NCBI GenBank assembly: GCA_964016885.1
Contig: OZ024746.1
Location: forward strand, 39,494,001-39,558,000
Direction of reading: 5' to 3'
Source: Eledone cirrhosa
Lineage: Eukaryota
DNA length: 64,000 bases
Under the pieces are notes generated by a model, which had not been told where the DNA came from, searched no databases, and saw only the letters and a list, made by a program, of their open reading frames with translations. A program made the translations under genes and the position numbers. Positions within the stretch are counted from its first letter, which is position 1. Each line of letters opens with the position of its first letter. Positions 10,938 through 51,313 of this stretch are shown here, one piece after another.

Positions 10938-11638
<701 letters not shown>

Positions 11639-11800: not shown

Positions 11801-11865
11801 ATTTTATTATACATATTTCAGAGGTACTGAATAAATTTCAACAGTACGTCCTCATCAGATAAAAT
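11801..11865 (-). ncRNA. Type I hammerhead motif, family with copies near 14.1, 14.3 and 60.2 kb
   Basis: AUUUUAU-CUGAUGA-GGAcGUACUG..CAGUACcUCU-GAAAUAUGUAUA-AUAAAAU. Confidence 0.75.
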
Positions 11866-13004: not shown

Positions 13005-13054
13005 ACTGCCTGAAGAGGTCACAGCCAAAATGATGTCGAAATATATATAGCAGT
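13005..13054 (+). ncRNA. Type I hammerhead motif (stem II imperfect)
   Basis: ACUGC-CUGAAGA-GGUCA..UGAUGUC-GAAAUAUAUAUA-GCAGU; palindromic AU stem III. Confidence 0.65.
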
Positions 13055-23400: not shown

Positions 23401-23850
23401 ACACCAGTCTTACAGAACTTACAGAATCATTCAATACAACCTTCTGAATAATTAGACTAATTATTGATAATACAATAGCCGTACTTTAAGTATTGTTTAT
23501 TTTTCAGGTTGCTACAACAGGTATAGACACTCCAAAGCAATTAGACAATCTTAAGCACACAATGTCATTGATATAGACGTAACAAACATAGTCTCTCCGA
23601 TTCAGGAGAGTCTTCTATGAAAAATTAATAATAGAAATTAAAGATGTAATATGGTTGCTTTCACTTCGGTTATGTGTTTACATATTTCGTATGAAAACAC
23701 ACGAACATATGCTTATCTCTTATTCTCGCTGCTGACTTGTTCTTTCTGTCCCACTTTTACTTTCCCATTGAAACCAATCCATATTTAGCCATGATAAACG
23801 CATACACAATGGCACGTACGCAAGCACACACACACACATACACACATATA

Positions 23851-23880
<30 letters not shown>

Positions 23881-23890
<10 letters not shown>

Positions 23891-26800
23891 AATATAGACA
23901 TAGAATATTCGAAAATATTCTGTATGTTTATAATAAACATTTTGAAGACCTAATCGCTATAGAATAGAATACGTCACGTATTACAATTAGATTCTCGATA
24001 AAAGCAAGGGAAGTAATCTACGCGTTTCATTCTTATTAGAAATCTTCAGGACTACATATCCAGTGCTTTTATCGAGAATGACACAGCTAGAGACTTATAG
24101 AATACTTAGCTGTGTACATGAACTGGTTTGAAAGAGCGGTTGCCGGTCCGGCAGAAATTAGAAATTGGAATAAATGCTCTGAAATAGCGATATATATGTG
24201 AATATAGACATAGAATATTCGAAAATATTCTGTATGTTTATAATAAACATTTTGAAGACCTAATCGCTATAGAATAGAATACGTCACGTATTACAATTAG
24301 ATTCTCGATAAAAGCAAGGGAAGTAATCTACGCGTTTCATTCTTATTAGAAATCTTCAGGACTACATATCCAGTGCTTTTATCGAGAATGACACAGCTAG
24401 AGACTTATAGAATACTTAGCTGTGTACATGAACTGGTTTGAAAGAGCGGTTGCCGGTCCGGCAGAAATTAGAAATTGGAATAAATGCTCTGAAATAGCGA
24501 TATATATGTGAATATAGACATAGAATATTCGAAAATATTCTGTATGTTTATAATAAACATTTTGAAGACCTAATCGCTATAGAATAGAATACGTCACGTA
24601 TTACAATTAGATTCTCGATAAAAGCAAGGGAAGTAATCTACGCGTTTCATTCTTATTAGAAATCTTCAGGACTACATATCCAGTGCTTTTATCGAGAATG
24701 ACACAGCTAGAGACTTATAGAATACTTAGCTGTGTACATGAACTGGTTTGAAAGAGCGGTTGCCGGTCCGGCAGAAATTAGAAATTGGAATAAATGCTCT
24801 GAAATAGCGATATATATGTGAATATAGACATAGAATATTCGAAAATATTCTGTATGTTTATAATAAACATTTTGAAGACCTAATCGCTATAGAATAGAAT
24901 ACGTCACGTATTACAATTAGATTCTCGATAAAAGCAAGGGAAGTAATCTACGCGTTTCATTCTTATTAGAAATCTTCAGGACTACATATCCAGTGCTTTT
25001 ATCGAGAATGACACAGCTAGAGACTTATAGAATACTTAGCTGTGTACATGAACTGGTTTGAAAGAGCGGTTGCCGGTCCGGCAGAAATTAGAAATTGGAA
25101 TAAATGCTCTGAAATAGCGATATATATGTGAATATAGACATAGAATATTCGAAAATATTCTGTATGTTTATAATAAACATTTTGAAGACCTAATCGCTAT
25201 AGAATAGAATACGTCACGTATTACAATTAGATTCTCGATAAAAGCAAGGGAAGTAATCTACGCGTTTCATTCTTATTAGAAATCTTCAGGACTACATATC
25301 CAGTGCTTTTATCGAGAATGACACAGCTAGAGACTTATAGAATACTTAGCTGTGTACATGAACTGGTTTGAAAGAGCGGTTGCCGGTCCGGCAGAAATTA
25401 GAAATTGGAATAAATGCTCTGAAATAGCGATATATATGTGAATATAGACATAGAATATTCGAAAATATTCTGTATGTTTATAATAAACATTTTGAAGACC
25501 TAATCGCTATAGAATAGAATACGTCACGTATTACAATTAGATTCTCGATAAAAGCAAGGGAAGTAATCTACGCGTTTCATTCTTATTAGAAATCTTCAGG
25601 ACTACATATCCAGTGCTTTTATCGAGAATGACACAGCTAGAGACTTATAGAATACTTAGCTGTGTACATGAACTGGTTTGAAAGAGCGGTTGCCGGTCCG
25701 GCAGAAATTAGAAATTGGAATAAATGCTCTGAAATAGCGATATATATGTGAATATAGACATAGAATATTCGAAAATATTCTGTATGTTTATAATAAACAT
25801 TTTGAAGACCTAATCGCTATAGAATAGAATACGTCACGTATTACAATTAGATTCTCGATAAAAGCAAGGGAAGTAATCTACGCGTTTCATTCTTATTAGA
25901 AATCTTCAGGACTACATATCCAGTACTTTTATCGAGAATGACACAGCTAGAGACTTATAGAATACTTAGCTGTGTACATGAACTGGTTTGAAAGAGCGGT
26001 TGCCGGTCCGGCAGAAATTAGAAATTGGAATAAATGCTCTGAAATAGCGATATATATGTGAATATAGACATAGAATATTCGAAAATATTCTGTATGTTTA
26101 TAATAAACATTTTGAAGACCTAATCGCTATAGAATAGAATACGTCACGTATTACAATTAGATTCTCGATAAAAGCAAGGGAAGTAATCTACGCGTTTCAT
26201 TCTTATTAGAAATCTTCAGGACTACATATCCAGTGCTTTTATCGAGAATGACACAGCTAGAGACTTATAGAATACTTAGCTGTGTACATGAACTGGTTTG
26301 AAAGAGCGGTTGCCGGTCCGGCAGAAATTAGAAATTGGAATAAATGCTCTGAAATAGCGATATATATGTGAATATAGACATAGAATATTCGAAAATATTC
26401 TGTATGTTTATAATAAACATTTTGAAGACCTAATCGCTATAGAATAGAATACGTCACGTATTACAATTAGATTCTCGATAAAAGCAAGGGAAGTAATCTA
26501 CGCGTTTCATTCTTATTAGAAATCTTCAGGACTACATATCCAGTGCTTTTATCGAGAATGACACAGCTAGAGACTTATAGAATACTTAGCTGTGTACATG
26601 AACTGGTTTGAAAGAGCGGTTGCCGGTCCGGCAGAAATTAGAAATTGGAATAAATGCTCTGAAATAGCGATATATATGTGAATATAGACATAGAATATTC
26701 GAAAATATTCTGTATGTTTATAATAAACATTTTGAAGACCTAATCGCTATAGAATAGAATACGTCACGTATTACAATTAGATTCTCGATAAAAGCAAGGG

Positions 26801-29137
26801 AAGTAATCTACGCGTTTCATTCTTATTAGAAATCTTCAGGACTACATATCCAGTGCTTTAATCGAGAATGACACAGCTAGAGACTTATAGAATACTTAGC
26901 TGTGTACATGAACTGGTTTGAAAGAGCGGTTGCCGGTCCGGCAGAAATTAGAAATTGGAATAAATGCTCTGAAATAGCGATATATATGTGAATATAGACA
27001 TAGAATATTCGAAAATATTCTGTATGTTTATAATAAACATTTTGAAGACCTAATCGCTATAGAATAGAATACGTCACGTATTACAATTAGATTCTCGATA
27101 AAAGCAAGGGAAGTAATCTACGCGTTTCATTCTTATTAGAAATCTTCAGGACTACATATCCAGTGCTTTTATCGAGAATGACACAGCTAGAGACTTATAG
27201 AATACTTAGCTGTGTACATGAACTTCGAATATTCTATGTCTATATTCACATATATATCGCTATTTCAGAGCATTTATTCCAATTTCTAATTTCTGCCGGA
27301 CCGGCAACCGCTCTTTCAAACCAGTTCATGTACACAGCTAAGTATTCTATAAGTCTCTAGCTGTGTCATTCTCGATAAAAGCACTGGATATGTAGTCCTG
27401 AAGATTTCTAATAAGAATGAAACGCGTAGATTACTTCCCTTGCTTTTATCGAGAATCTAATTGTAATACGTGACGTATTCTATTCTATAGCGATTAGGTC
27501 TTCAAAATGTTTATTATAAACATACAGAATATTTTCGAATATTCTATGTCTATATTCACATATATATCGCTATTTCAGAGCATTTATTCCAATTTCTAAT
27601 TTCTGCCGGACCGGCAACCGCTCTTTCAAACCAGTTCATGTACACAGCTAAGTATTCTATAAGTCTCTAGCTGTGTCATTCTCGATAAAAGCACTGGATA
27701 TGTAGTCCTGAAAATTTCTAATAAGAATGAAACGCGTAGATTACTTCCCTTGCTTTTATCGAGAATCTAATTGTAATACGTGACGTATTCTATTCTATAG
27801 CGATTAGGTCTTCAAAATGTTTATTATAAACATACAGAATATTTTCGAATATTCTATGTCTATATTCACATATATATCGCTATTTCAGAGCATTTATTCC
27901 AATTTCTAATTTCTGCCGGACCGGCAACCGCTCTTTCAAACCAGTTCATGTACACAGCTAAGTATTCTATAAGTCTCTAGCTGTGTCATTCTCGATAAAA
28001 GCACTGGATATGTAGTCCTGAAGATTTCTAATAAGAATGAAACGCGTAGATTACTTCCCTTGCTTTTATCGAGAATCTAATTGTAATACGTGACGTATTC
28101 TATTCTATAGCGATTAGGTCTTCAAAATGTTTATTATAAACATACAGAATATTTTCGAATATTCTATGTCTATATTCACATATATATCGCTATTTCAGAG
28201 CATTTATTCCAATTTCTAATTTCTGCCGGACCGGCAACCGCTCTTTCAAACCAGTTCATGTACACAGCTAAGTATTCTATAAGTCTCTAGCTGTGTCATT
28301 CTCGATAAAAGCACTGGATATGTAGTCCTGAAGATTTCTAATAAGAATGAAACGCGTAGATTACTTCCCTTGCTTTTATCGAGAATCTAATTGTAATACG
28401 TGACGTATTCTATTCTATAGCGATTAGGTCTTCAAAATGTTTATTATAAACATACAGAATATTTTCGAATATTCTATGTCTATATTCACATATATATCGC
28501 TATTTCAGAGCATTTATTCCAATTTCTAATTTCTGCCGGACCGGCAACCGCTCTTTCAAACCAGTTCATGTACACAGCTAAGTATTCTATAAGTCTCTAG
28601 CTGTGTCATTCTCGATAAAAGCACTGGATATGTAGTCCTGAAGATTTCTAATAAGAATGAAACGCGTAGATTACTTCCCTTGCTTTTATCGAGAATCTAA
28701 TTGTAATACGTGACGTATTCTATTCTATAGCGATTAGGTCTTCAAAATGTTTATTATAAACATACAGAATATTTTCGAATATTCTATGTCTATATTCACA
28801 TATATATCGCTATTTCAGAGCATTTATTCCAATTTCTAATTTCTGCCGGACCGGCAACCGCTCTTTCAAACCAGTTCATGTACACAGCTAAGTATTCTAT
28901 AAGTCTCTAGCTGTGTCATTCTCGATAAAAGCACTGGATATGTAGTCCTGAAGATTTCTAATAAGAATGAAACGCGTAGATTACTTCCCTTGCTTTTATC
29001 GAGAATCTAATTGTAATACGTGACGTATTCTATTCTATAGCGATTAGGTCTTCAAAATGTTTATTATAAACATACAGAATATTTTCGAATATTCTATGTC
29101 TATATTCACATATATATCGCTATTTCAGAGCATTTAT

Positions 29138-29142
<5 letters not shown>
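23881..29142. repeat. 310-bp tandem array, about 10.8 units then about 6.2 inverted units (switch near 27224), one hammerhead per unit, flanked by (TA)n; retrozyme/PLE-pLTR-like
   Basis: Unit starts at 23881, 24191 ... 26981 (period 310); only three substitutions noticed (near 25925, 26860, 27713). Confidence 0.95.
24013..24055 (-). ncRNA. Minimal type I hammerhead of the 310-bp unit (11 copies on -, 6 on + starting 27392-27434)
   Basis: GUAGUC-CUGAAGA-uUUCUaauaAGAAu-GAAAC-GC-GUA-GAUUAC; palindromic ACGCGU stem III; enclosed by a 16-bp outer helix 23991-24006/24064-24079. Confidence 0.8.
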
Positions 29143-29211
<69 letters not shown>

Positions 29212-30051
29212 GTGGGAGGGGTCTGGACAAATTTTCATAAGTATTTTAAACAAAATTACAGGATATATGACACGAGACACGATAAATGAGATTTTATGAT
29301 ATTCATGTTACTGTGATATAGTCTGATCAAAGTAAACCTTTTATATGATTAAAGACATTCTTGCCGTAATCATCCCATAAGTATTTCTATTGAAGAGAAC
29401 CCAGCACCACATGTACCTTTTAAAGATTGTTTTGTTTTATTTGAGAGAGATTTTGTCTATCGTGGTGAGACCAGTAATGAATTAACATAATATAAGAATC
29501 AAAACCGAGTCGCCGACTCAACTCAAATGTTTTATTCCCGATGCCCAGTCTGAACCTTCGAGATTTAAAACCCAGGAACTAAGCCTTAGTTTAGCAAACT
29601 TTGATCAAAAGCTTTCTAGCCATGACCCGTCCCTTTTTTCTCCTCACAGTGCTCACATGACATCATTATCTAAAGTGGTTTTTTTTTTCTAATTTGAGGG
29701 GGTGTTTGGCTGTTGTTTTCTTCTGGTGAATAACCAGGAAGGAAATAGCAGTATCTATGACTCATTATATTTTTCAGTGCCCGTGAGCCGTATAGGAAGA
29801 GGAAAGGAAGTCACCCTTAAGCCAAAGACTTATCTTGAATTCTTACAACAGAATGAACTTCACAAAAGACGCCCAAGAATGAAATAGTGGTGTTAAACCA
29901 GGTAATGGATTAAATCTTTCACCTAAAAATTAAGAACGCAAACAGCTGGAACAAATAACTCAAGACATCTCGTCCGACTATGTAATAATATCACCAACCC
30001 ACCGCTATGGACTGTATCGACTCCAAAATTTAAATTCAGCGAGATTTTAAA

Positions 30052-30480
30052 CTCGGTTTTCGTGCCAACCCTTACGTATCGTCATGAATCTTGGGTAATG
30101 ACCGAAAGAATACGATCACGAATATAAGCGGACGAAATGGGATTCCTCTAAAGGGTCTTTGGAGTAACGTTACTCGATAAAGTGCGTAGCTCGGAGATCA
30201 GAGAGTCACTCCAGGTAGAGCCGCAACTTCTTTCAATTGAGAGATCACAGCTCAAATACTATGGACATGTGGTTAGAATGTCTCAGGAAAGAATCACTGG
30301 ATAGATTTTACGGGCAAAAACCAACCCGCAAGAGACCCAGAGGTAGACCCCGAACAAGATGGTTGGATAAAAACCATGGCTGGTCACGCTTGGGGCTCCA
30401 GTCGGATCAGTCGGGTACGGTTGCTTCTGACAGGACCCGCTGAAAGAAGTGTTTGAGGACTCTGCACGCCACAACCCCCC
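30052..30480 (+). mobile_element. RTE-clade LINE 3' fragment
   Basis: Same family as 8337-8790; KPTRKRPRGRPRTRWLD C-terminal motif. Confidence 0.85.
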
Positions 30481-31782: not shown

Positions 31783-32680
31783 CGAGGTGGGTCAGAAAAG
31801 TTCCAGGACTGATGTCACAAAAGATTTATTTCAAACCCAAACTTCACACTAAGAGTTTTCTCCATCAAAGTAATTCCCCTGGAGTCTAATGCACTTTTTT
31901 TTATCCTTTTCTGCCACGCTTGCATGCACTCCTGGAAGGATTCTTCCGGGATCCTCCGCAGTTCCGTCGTCACGGCCTTTTTGATGTCGTCCACGTCTTC
32001 AAAACGGGTCCCCTCCGGATCGTACTCGAAGATCCATAACTCATCACCGGTGATGACTGTCCCTAGCAAGTCTGGTTCGGTTTCAAGACGTTCGATGATG
32101 TCCTGGCACACTTGCATGCGTCGACCCTTCTGGTCATCGTTCAGCAGTTTTGGCACCATCTTCGCGCAGACTTTCTGCATGTCCAAATCTTCAGTGAGAA
32201 TCTTCCAGACGCTGTACCGATTCATTCCCAGCTCATTTGCTATCAGTCGAACAGTCAGCCGACGATCGCTACGCACGATCTGCCTGACGCGCTCAACGTT
32301 GACCTCAGTCCTGGTTGTTGAGGGCCTTCCGCTCCTGGGGTCATCTTCCACGTCCTCACGCCCTTCTTTAAACCTCTTGCACCACTCAAAAACACGTGAG
32401 CGTGACATCGTCTCATCTCCATACACTTGCTGCAGCAATCCCAGTGCTTCCGACGGAGTTTTCAAGTTTGTTCGTTGCTCTGTGCTCATTGCTTGACGAC
32501 CTGAAACAGAGAACATGTATATGAAATTATGAAGAAAAAAGTTTGATCGCTGAAGAGAGCTAAGATTACAGTTACATACTACAGGGGGATTTCTTTGAGG
32601 GAGAAAACTCTTAGTGTGAAGTTTGGGTTTGAAATAAATCTTTTGTGACATCAGTCCTGGAACTTTTCTGACCCACCTCC
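31783..32680 (-). mobile_element. Internally deleted mariner element (898 bp, about 100-bp TIRs, TA target duplication)
   Basis: TIR CGAGGTGGGTCAGAAAAGTTCCAGGACTGATGTCAC.. at both ends; TA at 31781-31782 and 32681-32682. Confidence 0.92.
31815..32489 (-). pseudogene. Mariner transposase with in-frame deletion of most of the catalytic domain
   Basis: HTH region (MSRSRVFEW.KRFKEGREDVEDDPRSGRP), AKMVPKLL linker, ITGDE first catalytic Asp, then YDPE jumps straight to GTRFEDVDDIK. Confidence 0.85.
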
Positions 32681-32777
32681 TATATACATACATACATACA
32701 TATATATATATATATAGAGAGAGAGAGAAATTGGGTGAGTAGAAGAGTAAGTGTACTATGTATCATTATTTCTAACC

Positions 32778-35789: not shown

Positions 35790-36363
35790 TAAATGTATAT
35801 ATAGTGTATTTTGCAATACACTATATGCTTAATTAAAAGCATTTCGAAGACCTTACAGGGGAGATAAAGCTGACTGAGCTCTGTTTCGCACTTTTTGGTG
35901 CTTATCAAAACTAACTACTCCACCTGTTTGCTGAAAATTAAGTAAGGTCTTCGAAATGTTTTTAATTAAGCATACAGTGTATTGCAAAATCCACTATATA
36001 CACATTCATATATATATATCGCTATTTCAGAGCACCAATTCTAATTTTCAATTTCTGCTTGACCGGCAACCGCTCTGTATAATCAATTCCTGATTATTAC
36101 TAGAATTCTATAAGAATCAAACATTCATGATTCTCAGCAAACAGGTGGAGTAGTTAGCTTTGATAAGCACCAAAAAGTGCGAAACAGAGCTCTGTCAGCT
36201 TTATCTCCCTGTTTGCTGAAAATTAAAGTAAGTGAGACTGTCACTACTCTAAAACAATAGCGTAAGGTCTTCAAAATGCTTTTAATTAAGTATACAGTGT
36301 ATTGCAAAATACACTATATATACATTCATATATATATCGCTATTTCAGAGCACCAATTCTAAT
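35790..36363. mobile_element. Sister family of the 310-bp unit: 318-bp period, inverted left arm, two variant HHRs (35868-35912 on -, 36156-36200 on +)
   Basis: Shares CGCTATTTCAGAGCA, GACCGGCAACCGCTCT and AGGTCTTCAAAATG blocks; AGCU-UUGAUAA-GCACcaaaaaGUGC-GAAACAGAGCUCUGUC-AGCU. Confidence 0.8.
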
Positions 36364-36499
36364 TATATATATATATATATAGTGAAACGCACTTTTTATG
36401 ATCATTTTGGAACGGACACTTCCAGATGACAATAACAAACAGATAACATTAAGTAAAAGATTAATCTTGATTACAGCAACCATTTAATAACTTTATATT

Positions 36500-51092: not shown

Positions 51093-51272
51093 GCGGCGAT
51101 GAATTAGTTTTGCGAGGTTTTTTATATGAAATCGTGTGTCGAAACAGATATTGTTATACTTGGGGAGGGTCATATTTGCGTAATATTGCCAGAATTAATA
51201 ACAGAACACACTCACTGTTGTGTTCTGTTATTAATTCTGGCAATATTACGCAAATATGACCCTCCCCAAGTA

Positions 51273-51276
<4 letters not shown>
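51093..51276. mobile_element. (TA)n-flanked element with perfect palindrome 51153-51276, related to the end of the 11.1-kb element
   Basis: 58-bp arms, 8-nt spacer; shared TGAAATCGTGTGT.GAAAC.GATATTGTTATACTT.GGGAGGGTCAT. Confidence 0.8.

Positions 51277-51313
<37 letters not shown>

Follow-up and report, generated by a model that had tools for sequence, protein, structure and literature searches.

How does a tandem array of self-cleaving RNA motifs come to lie, nearly free of mutations, within a simple (TA)n repeat? This question is raised by a stretch of 64,000 nucleotides from Eledone cirrhosa (contig OZ024746.1, positions 39,494,001 to 39,558,000; hereafter the window), in which a 310-bp unit with 17 hammerhead ribozyme cores fills positions 23880-29143 and carries 3 substitutions across 5.26 kb. 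An earlier note on this DNA described a single 17-fold tandem; the unit, the 17 cores, the near-identity and the (TA)n flanks all stand, but the direct layout does not. The array is made of two head-to-head arms, with 10.8 copies on the minus strand and 6.2 on the plus strand, which meet 5'-to-5' at 27224 with an overlap of 1 nt, and both of its outer ends abut (TA)n. This inverted two-arm layout, overlooked by the earlier note, is the most diagnostic feature of the locus. Here we argue that the array very likely belongs to a young, dispersed, non-coding retrozyme without long terminal repeats (LTRs) that bears the insertion footprint of Penelope-like elements (PLEs). As judged from genomic sequence, its monomer was probably copied by rolling-circle reverse transcription and inserted by PLE twin priming. 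With monomer positions numbered from the predicted ribozyme cut, the array reads as follows.

23846-23887, no strand: left (TA)n target tract, sharing 8 nt of microhomology with the left-arm end.
23880-27224, minus strand: left arm, 10.8 head-to-tail copies with 11 cores; inner end at monomer 205, outer (3') end at monomer 139, the proximal start site.
27224-27224, no strand: head-to-head inversion junction, joining monomer 205 to 106 with 1 nt of microhomology.
27224-29143, plus strand: right arm, 6.2 copies with 6 cores; inner end at monomer 106, outer (3') end at monomer 165, the distal start site.
29118-29143, plus strand: the 'tail', monomer 140-165, present at the distal outer end and missing from the proximal one.
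29142-29208, no strand: right (TA)n target tract.

Neither outer end coincides with the cut. The monomer is 310 bp long with 34% GC, and the spacing and non-coding status given in the earlier note were both borne out, the longest stop-free run across all frames of four joined copies being 59 codons. The same joined copies hold no rolling-circle open reading frame (ORF), and the repeat lacks the ORF with reverse transcriptase (RT) plus GIY-YIG domains that would mark an autonomous PLE.

The array is one of many. We counted 19,013 core copies in the 3.0-Gb genome (reversed-pattern control, 0), where hammerhead arrays total about 5.9 Mb, together with 1,013 exact junctions of monomer position 165 with (AT)n (control, 0) and 684 of position 130 (control, 9). 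Other arrays, which the earlier note had suggested seeking, thus amount to at least 1,013 insertions, and the identical end junctions with their empty controls set aside chance or misassembly as the source of the repeat. Since an exact '165' partner was present at 21 of the first 41 '130' junctions, we estimate the total at near 2,000 insertions. We read 101 of these in three samples: 21 loci with copies identical to the window, taken from the best 150 of 305 matches; the first 60 of the 1,013 '165' junctions; and 20 of the first 41 '130' junctions that lack an exact '165' partner, the likeliest place for exceptions. The first sample, which was not chosen by its ends, gave 18 two-armed and 3 one-armed insertions (one with its other side unreadable). 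In the second, 52 insertions were two-armed and could be read to both ends, 4 were one-armed (the upstream side of one being unreadable) and 4 extended beyond the fetched stretch, 2 of them visibly two-armed; the third gave 18 two-armed and 2 one-armed. Two-armed insertions therefore make up 90 of the 101.

Each of the 88 two-armed loci in which both ends are seen pairs an arm that stops at monomer 125-139 with one that stops at 165-172, never two alike; the commonest pair is 130/165 and the offset between paired outer ends is 26-47 nt. (TA)n borders nearly all insertion ends. Inner arm ends are scattered along the monomer, and the 71 centre junctions comprise 42 that overlap by 1-5 nt, 7 that are blunt, 5 with longer overlaps and 17 with extra bases. 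Median arm lengths are 1,161 and 954 bp, the longest being 5.5 and 5.9 kb. One locus in an imperfect target (L045; sampled loci are designated L) shows a 12-bp target duplication, while target duplications elsewhere are mostly unreadable, being masked by the (TA)n microsatellite. Two candidate classes were rejected on these grounds: a plant LTR retrozyme, marked by type III hammerheads in two LTRs and a 4-bp duplication, given that the hammerhead here is type I and the insertions are concatemers with no LTR pair, and a foldback DNA transposon, whose terminal ends should be identical.

This anatomy resembles that of PLEs. PLE insertions often carry an inverted 5'-truncated copy and a 30-40 bp tail at one end, and PLEs favour (TA)n targets (PMC8557442, PMC3846280). 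The purified PLE protein of the anole, predicted to be a dimer, cuts both DNA strands and extends them, using two start sites inside the RNA that delimit the tail (PMC11167929). The fixed, paired ends of the retrozyme match such a two-start-site tail. Candidate enzymes are present in the same genome, which contains 10,596 GIY-YIG candidates and at least 5 PLE families with long ORFs; among the five proteins scanned against Pfam, RVT_1 was found in all and GIY-YIG in 4. Like the retrozyme, families with RT and GIY-YIG have paired ends in (TA)n, which lie, counted from each family's own cut, at +76 and +142 in family A, +122 and +168-183 in family B, and +124 and +164 in family D. Families D and B fit the end geometry of the retrozyme best, and both are young (40 scored copies, 99-100%). 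At 29057-29095 on the plus strand, immediately before the proximal end, lie two hairpins (monomer 79-95 and 98-117) whose pairing is preserved in sister families by compensatory changes and that may be the binding site of a PLE protein.

Some features of these PLEs deserve record in their own right. The 3' ends of families A (L142, L143, L150) and D (L147, L153) carry hammerheads with U3-A8 cores, that of family D having GCAAC where GAAAC is expected, and folding of the PLE 3' ends gave no clear shared motif. Long open PLE frames of 1,096 and 938 codons from stop to stop occur at L141:1775-5062 and L142:4809-7622, in each of which a Cys-rich linker precedes the GIY-YIG domain; we take both to be Neptune-like.

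Each unit contains a type I hammerhead for which self-cleavage is predicted. With positions assigned by established hammerhead numbering, the core common to all 17 copies is GUAGUC-CUGAAGA-stem II-GAAAC-GC-GUA^GAUUAC, and 16 of the 17 are intact. Representative copies are these.

24013-24055, minus strand: example type I hammerhead of the left arm, cut predicted between 24019 and 24018.
27702-27744, plus strand: the copy bearing G8>A, changed at 27713 and predicted to be inactive.
28608-28696, plus strand: extension of stem I, ending in a 16-bp helix (28608-28623 paired with 28681-28696) that would keep the ends produced by cleavage from separating.
28632-28674, plus strand: example type I hammerhead of the right arm, cut predicted between 28668 and 28669; stem I GUAGUC/GAUUAC, core CUGAAGA, stem II with a hexaloop and a U-U closing pair, stem III short and palindromic.

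The left-arm cut had already been placed there by the earlier note, in agreement with the core positions. That note had also called the ribozyme a 'minimal' PLE type; instead, it is a canonical metazoan type I with a 6-bp stem I extended by the 16-bp helix. The predicted fold comprises this stem I, a 4-bp stem II with its hexaloop, a two-pair palindromic stem III, an internal loop and the 16-bp helix, and the folding z is -5.9 for the 96-nt region versus -0.9 for the 57-nt core alone. Sister families retain a helix at the site of the 16-bp helix with different letters. The U-U pair that closes stem II is replaced by A-U in 18 of the 101 sampled insertions, and it is shared by the axolotl ribozyme HHR_Amex2, whose monomer cleaves to 22% and is surpassed by the dimer (PMC7229834).

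What was copied can be read from the variants that each insertion carries. Among 48 well-covered loci we found 24 haplotypes, such that two random loci share one with a probability of 0.064, and yet the haplotype is common to both arms in 41 of 43 insertions. Among the 101 insertions we count 34 fixed variants, each carried by every copy of one or more loci and many of them seen once; at L063, a 2-nt deletion is present in 22 of 22 copies. Variants confined to a single copy occur at a density of 0.46 per kb, and 2 of them are mirrored in both arms versus 66 that are not. The cut junction is altered 3 times in 913 copies, two of these being one duplicated event, and inner ends fall within 3 nt of the cut in 4 of 142 cases, where about 3 are expected. 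One haplotype per insertion, a clean cut junction and scattered inner ends together argue for a covalently continuous monomer that was copied over several laps. The earlier note's suggestion that the array is a concatemer insertion made by a PLE RT from a 310-nt circular template gains support from these haplotypes and from the tail signature.

Further signals are suggestive of an RNA step and of selection on the ribozyme. On the ribozyme strand, A>G accounts for 10 of 29 fixed substitutions versus 7 of 105 single-copy ones (p 4e-4), and A>G to T>C is 10:4 among fixed and 7:15 among single-copy variants (p 0.04), a polarity that rests on majority alleles. Such an excess is as adenosine-to-inosine (A-to-I) editing of the RNA template would give; on the other side, 7 of the 10 A>G sites are paired versus 60% of all A. 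None of the 34 fixed variants falls in the 12 core positions, whereas 6 of 105 single-copy variants (first 81 insertions) strike the core; with 9 changed positions in the 43-nt ribozyme (p about 0.05), the absence of fixed variants is weak evidence by itself. The free hammerhead position 7 tolerates A, C and U, and pairing is regained by U10.1>A. Across sister families, both partners have changed in 6 of 18 named pairs and 97% of cells pair, versus 28-53% in slid controls, a covariation score reached by 0 of 500 shuffles and drawn from 10 rows that represent about three lineages. Only stem II and the two hairpins were counted, because MAFFT misaligns stem I between families.

Beyond the qualifications attached to these signals, several observations weigh against the reading of a circular monomer copied by a PLE. 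Over the window, no hammerhead family appears among the best 150 of 158 Rfam matches at E<=1. The Rfam search proposed in the earlier note gave, on a 301-nt stretch, only the hammerhead HH9, which at 17 bits (E 0.13) lies below the gathering score of 52. The autonomous PLE with the same terminal sequence that the note had envisaged did not appear either, as no PLE shares the monomer sequence among 50 compared, of 150 scored from the GIY-YIG candidates. The RNA, its cleavage and the circle are here predictions from genomic sequence. Lastly, some loci carry patterns not obtainable from a single monomer circle: at L099, the haplotype of the outer two units differs, in both arms, from that of the units farther in; in L081 and L196, a variant is confined to lap one of each of the two arms; and at L072 and L108 haplotypes differ within or between arms. 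A dimer circle was ruled out as the source of the first-lap variant in L196, since lap 3 lacks it. We ascribe the mixed loci to a minority of events that involved multimer templates, switching of template or conversion.

These loci also lend weight to an alternative that we consider unlikely, namely PLE twin priming on an uncut linear read-through transcript, to which the ribozyme would be incidental. The mirrored block switch of L099, the first-lap variants of L081 and L196 (missing from lap 3 in L196) and the mixture at L072 all accord with it. In its favour, too, anole PLE in vitro needs no ribozyme cleavage and has unprocessed RNA as its dominant substrate (PMC11167929), and 8 of 9 Xenopus dimers were uncleaved (preprint 10.64898/2026.07.22.740005). 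A linear transcript, however, transmits variants unit by unit and offers no means by which a new variant would come to occupy all copies of both arms, yet 34 fixed variants are seen versus 2 mirrored singles and 1 mirrored block; moreover, its arrays would shrink each generation.

Somewhat less credible still is a cut but linear monomer, its ends held by stem I and the 16-bp helix, on which a telomerase-related RT would jump precisely from the 5' to the 3' end and so repeat the unit. It would likewise yield one haplotype per insertion, the predicted fold sets both ends side by side, and occasional jumps to another molecule would account for L099 and L072. End-to-end jumps, as in work on R2, usually leave junction errors and a pile-up of inner ends; neither an excess of errors at the junction nor a pile-up at the cut is seen in the counts given above.

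We regard as very improbable that a short PLE-type insertion was later expanded by unequal crossover and homogenised by gene conversion, although a later route of local amplification has been suggested (preprint 10.64898/2026.07.22.740005). Block duplications with periods of 2-8 units do occur in L062, L063 and L085, the arms of an older sister family hold about 2 copies or fewer, and conversion between inverted arms could give mirrored variants. Against this, duplicated variants occur in only 3 of 81 insertions, single-copy variants stay single, and in 42 of 69 insertions each arm has at least 2 copies and the ends are sharp. Assembly of palindromic arrays is difficult, but an artefact of fold-back reads, or a foldback DNA transposon whose terminal repeats are tandem, can be dismissed almost entirely in view of the fixed end offset, which leaves no shared terminal repeat, the locus-specific haplotypes, the target duplication of L045 and the recurrence of the layout in the older sister family.

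That older family has a 316-nt unit and a U3-A8 core of a kind described for PLE ribozymes (PMC4209133); it shares both end positions with the younger family, but its arms are shorter (25 loci). The window itself holds a two-armed insertion of it in (TA)n at about 35790-36372, with ends at about 131 and 167, a CAAAAA loop and 69-78% likeness to the monomer. Five hammerhead-like motifs of other families occur in the window at 13010 and 17679 on the plus strand and at 11858, 14149 and 60284 on the minus strand, and the fetched loci contain about ten further hammerhead families. At L151:8168-9700, hammerhead units lie about 490 nt apart with (TA)n tracts between them, a layout that is not head-to-tail, and at L150:7890-7990 a related ribozyme family, alike in stem II but with stem III longer and stem I different, forms a short head-to-head pair.

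For the circular template and PLE twin priming that we prefer, the following course of events can be proposed. Arrays would be transcribed, hammerheads, probably as dimers, would excise monomers, and a host ligase would close them. A PLE protein dimer would bind near the two hairpins and nick both (TA)n strands, whereupon one 3'-OH would start at monomer 165-172 and the other at 125-139, in each case with the aid of a short AT microhomology. Both primed strands would then run several laps round the 310-nt circle, and the two cDNA 3' ends would anneal over 0-5 nt before fill-in. A minority of events would use multimeric or switched templates, and a few arms would later be lengthened by local block duplication. 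Taken as a whole, the scheme of a PLE dimer acting on an ADAR-edited, viroid-sized RNA circle, with two simultaneous rolling-circle reverse transcriptions producing a palindromic array in one step, is one toward which we lean by a narrow measure. If true, it would amount to rolling-circle retrotransposition in an animal, would account for the inverted-plus-tail anatomy of all Penelope insertions, would show a one-step route to palindromic satellite arrays, and would make the history of an RNA quasispecies readable in about 2,000 genomic snapshots. The youth of the family lets each insertion event be read, and the insertions, at their estimated number, constitute a genome-scale test of circle versus multimer. 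For the existing in vitro PLE assay, the family offers exact start sites, a target, a 310-nt substrate and candidate enzymes.

Both the retrozyme class and the circle hypothesis are already published. The non-LTR class was defined, its circles demonstrated, and tandem cDNA made by RT proposed with PLEs as candidates in PMC7229834; the same circle-copying route was proposed for PLEs in PMC4209133, and a preprint (10.64898/2026.07.22.740005) links retrozymes to pseudo-LTRs (pLTRs). How retrozymes return to the genome, and whether from a circle, has accordingly been a matter of proposals since 2014-2020 that was still open in that 2026 preprint, whose available text, by word search, makes no mention of tails or inverted arms. 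In the literature accessible to us, most subscription papers lying outside this scope, we found no two-armed retrozyme arrays and no per-locus haplotype evidence.

Near-identical matches were also found in data from other organisms, where 20 of 24 runs among those listed (18 organisms, 17 studies) contain 57-93% of the words of the repeat; no RNA run is among those listed. Two of four runs examined gave a single closed 340-nt contig each, at depths of 14 and 34, and a third gave a 394-nt piece at depth 3 with a join that resembles Hi-C ligation; in the raw reads of a second sample from one such organism (B), 0 of 12.8 million match. The matches are thus probably trace carry-over rather than genomic copies, and horizontal transfer is unsupported by the low-depth single contigs, or lack of reads, in these four runs. 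Elsewhere in the window, a mariner-type transposase fragment (HTH_48, HTH_32) lies at 31815-32762 on the minus strand, and what looks like a decayed reverse transcriptase fragment of a long interspersed nuclear element, presumably so by its motif, at about 29990-30450. Long near-perfect inverted repeats at 11330-11428 and 51150-51279, which draw sub-threshold microRNA matches, are probably small two-armed insertions of other families.

The closest known systems are the metazoan non-LTR retrozymes of coral, mussel, axolotl (Rtz_331, Rtz_353) and newt (satellite 2), as described in PMC7229834 and preprint 10.64898/2026.07.22.740005. Like these, the family has a non-coding tandem unit within 150-450 bp, low GC, one type I hammerhead per unit with a short palindromic helix III, thousands of copies and PLEs in the same genome, and, like HHR_Amex2, a U-U at the base of helix II. 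Metazoan retrozymes are described as direct tandems, whereas nearly all insertions here have two opposed arms with PLE tail ends in (TA)n; conversely, RNA and cleavage were demonstrated for those elements, and PLE mobilisation and the copying of a circle only proposed, while for the present family it is the other way round. With endonuclease-positive (EN+) PLEs such as Neptune, Poseidon and Naiad, it shares the inverted 5'-truncated copy, the 30-40 nt tail at one end, the (TA)n target, a variable target duplication and start sites about 100-170 nt past the ribozyme cut. It differs from them in having no ORF, arms many units long rather than a partial tandem, a canonical rather than minimal ribozyme, and no sequence match to any PLE sampled in this genome. 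In twin priming by L1, two target strands prime on one RNA and yield a 5'-to-5' inversion with microhomology, but the position of the second primer is random and there is no overlap between the arms; the retrozyme has two fixed starts separated by about 35 nt, and its arms cover the same sequence for many units.

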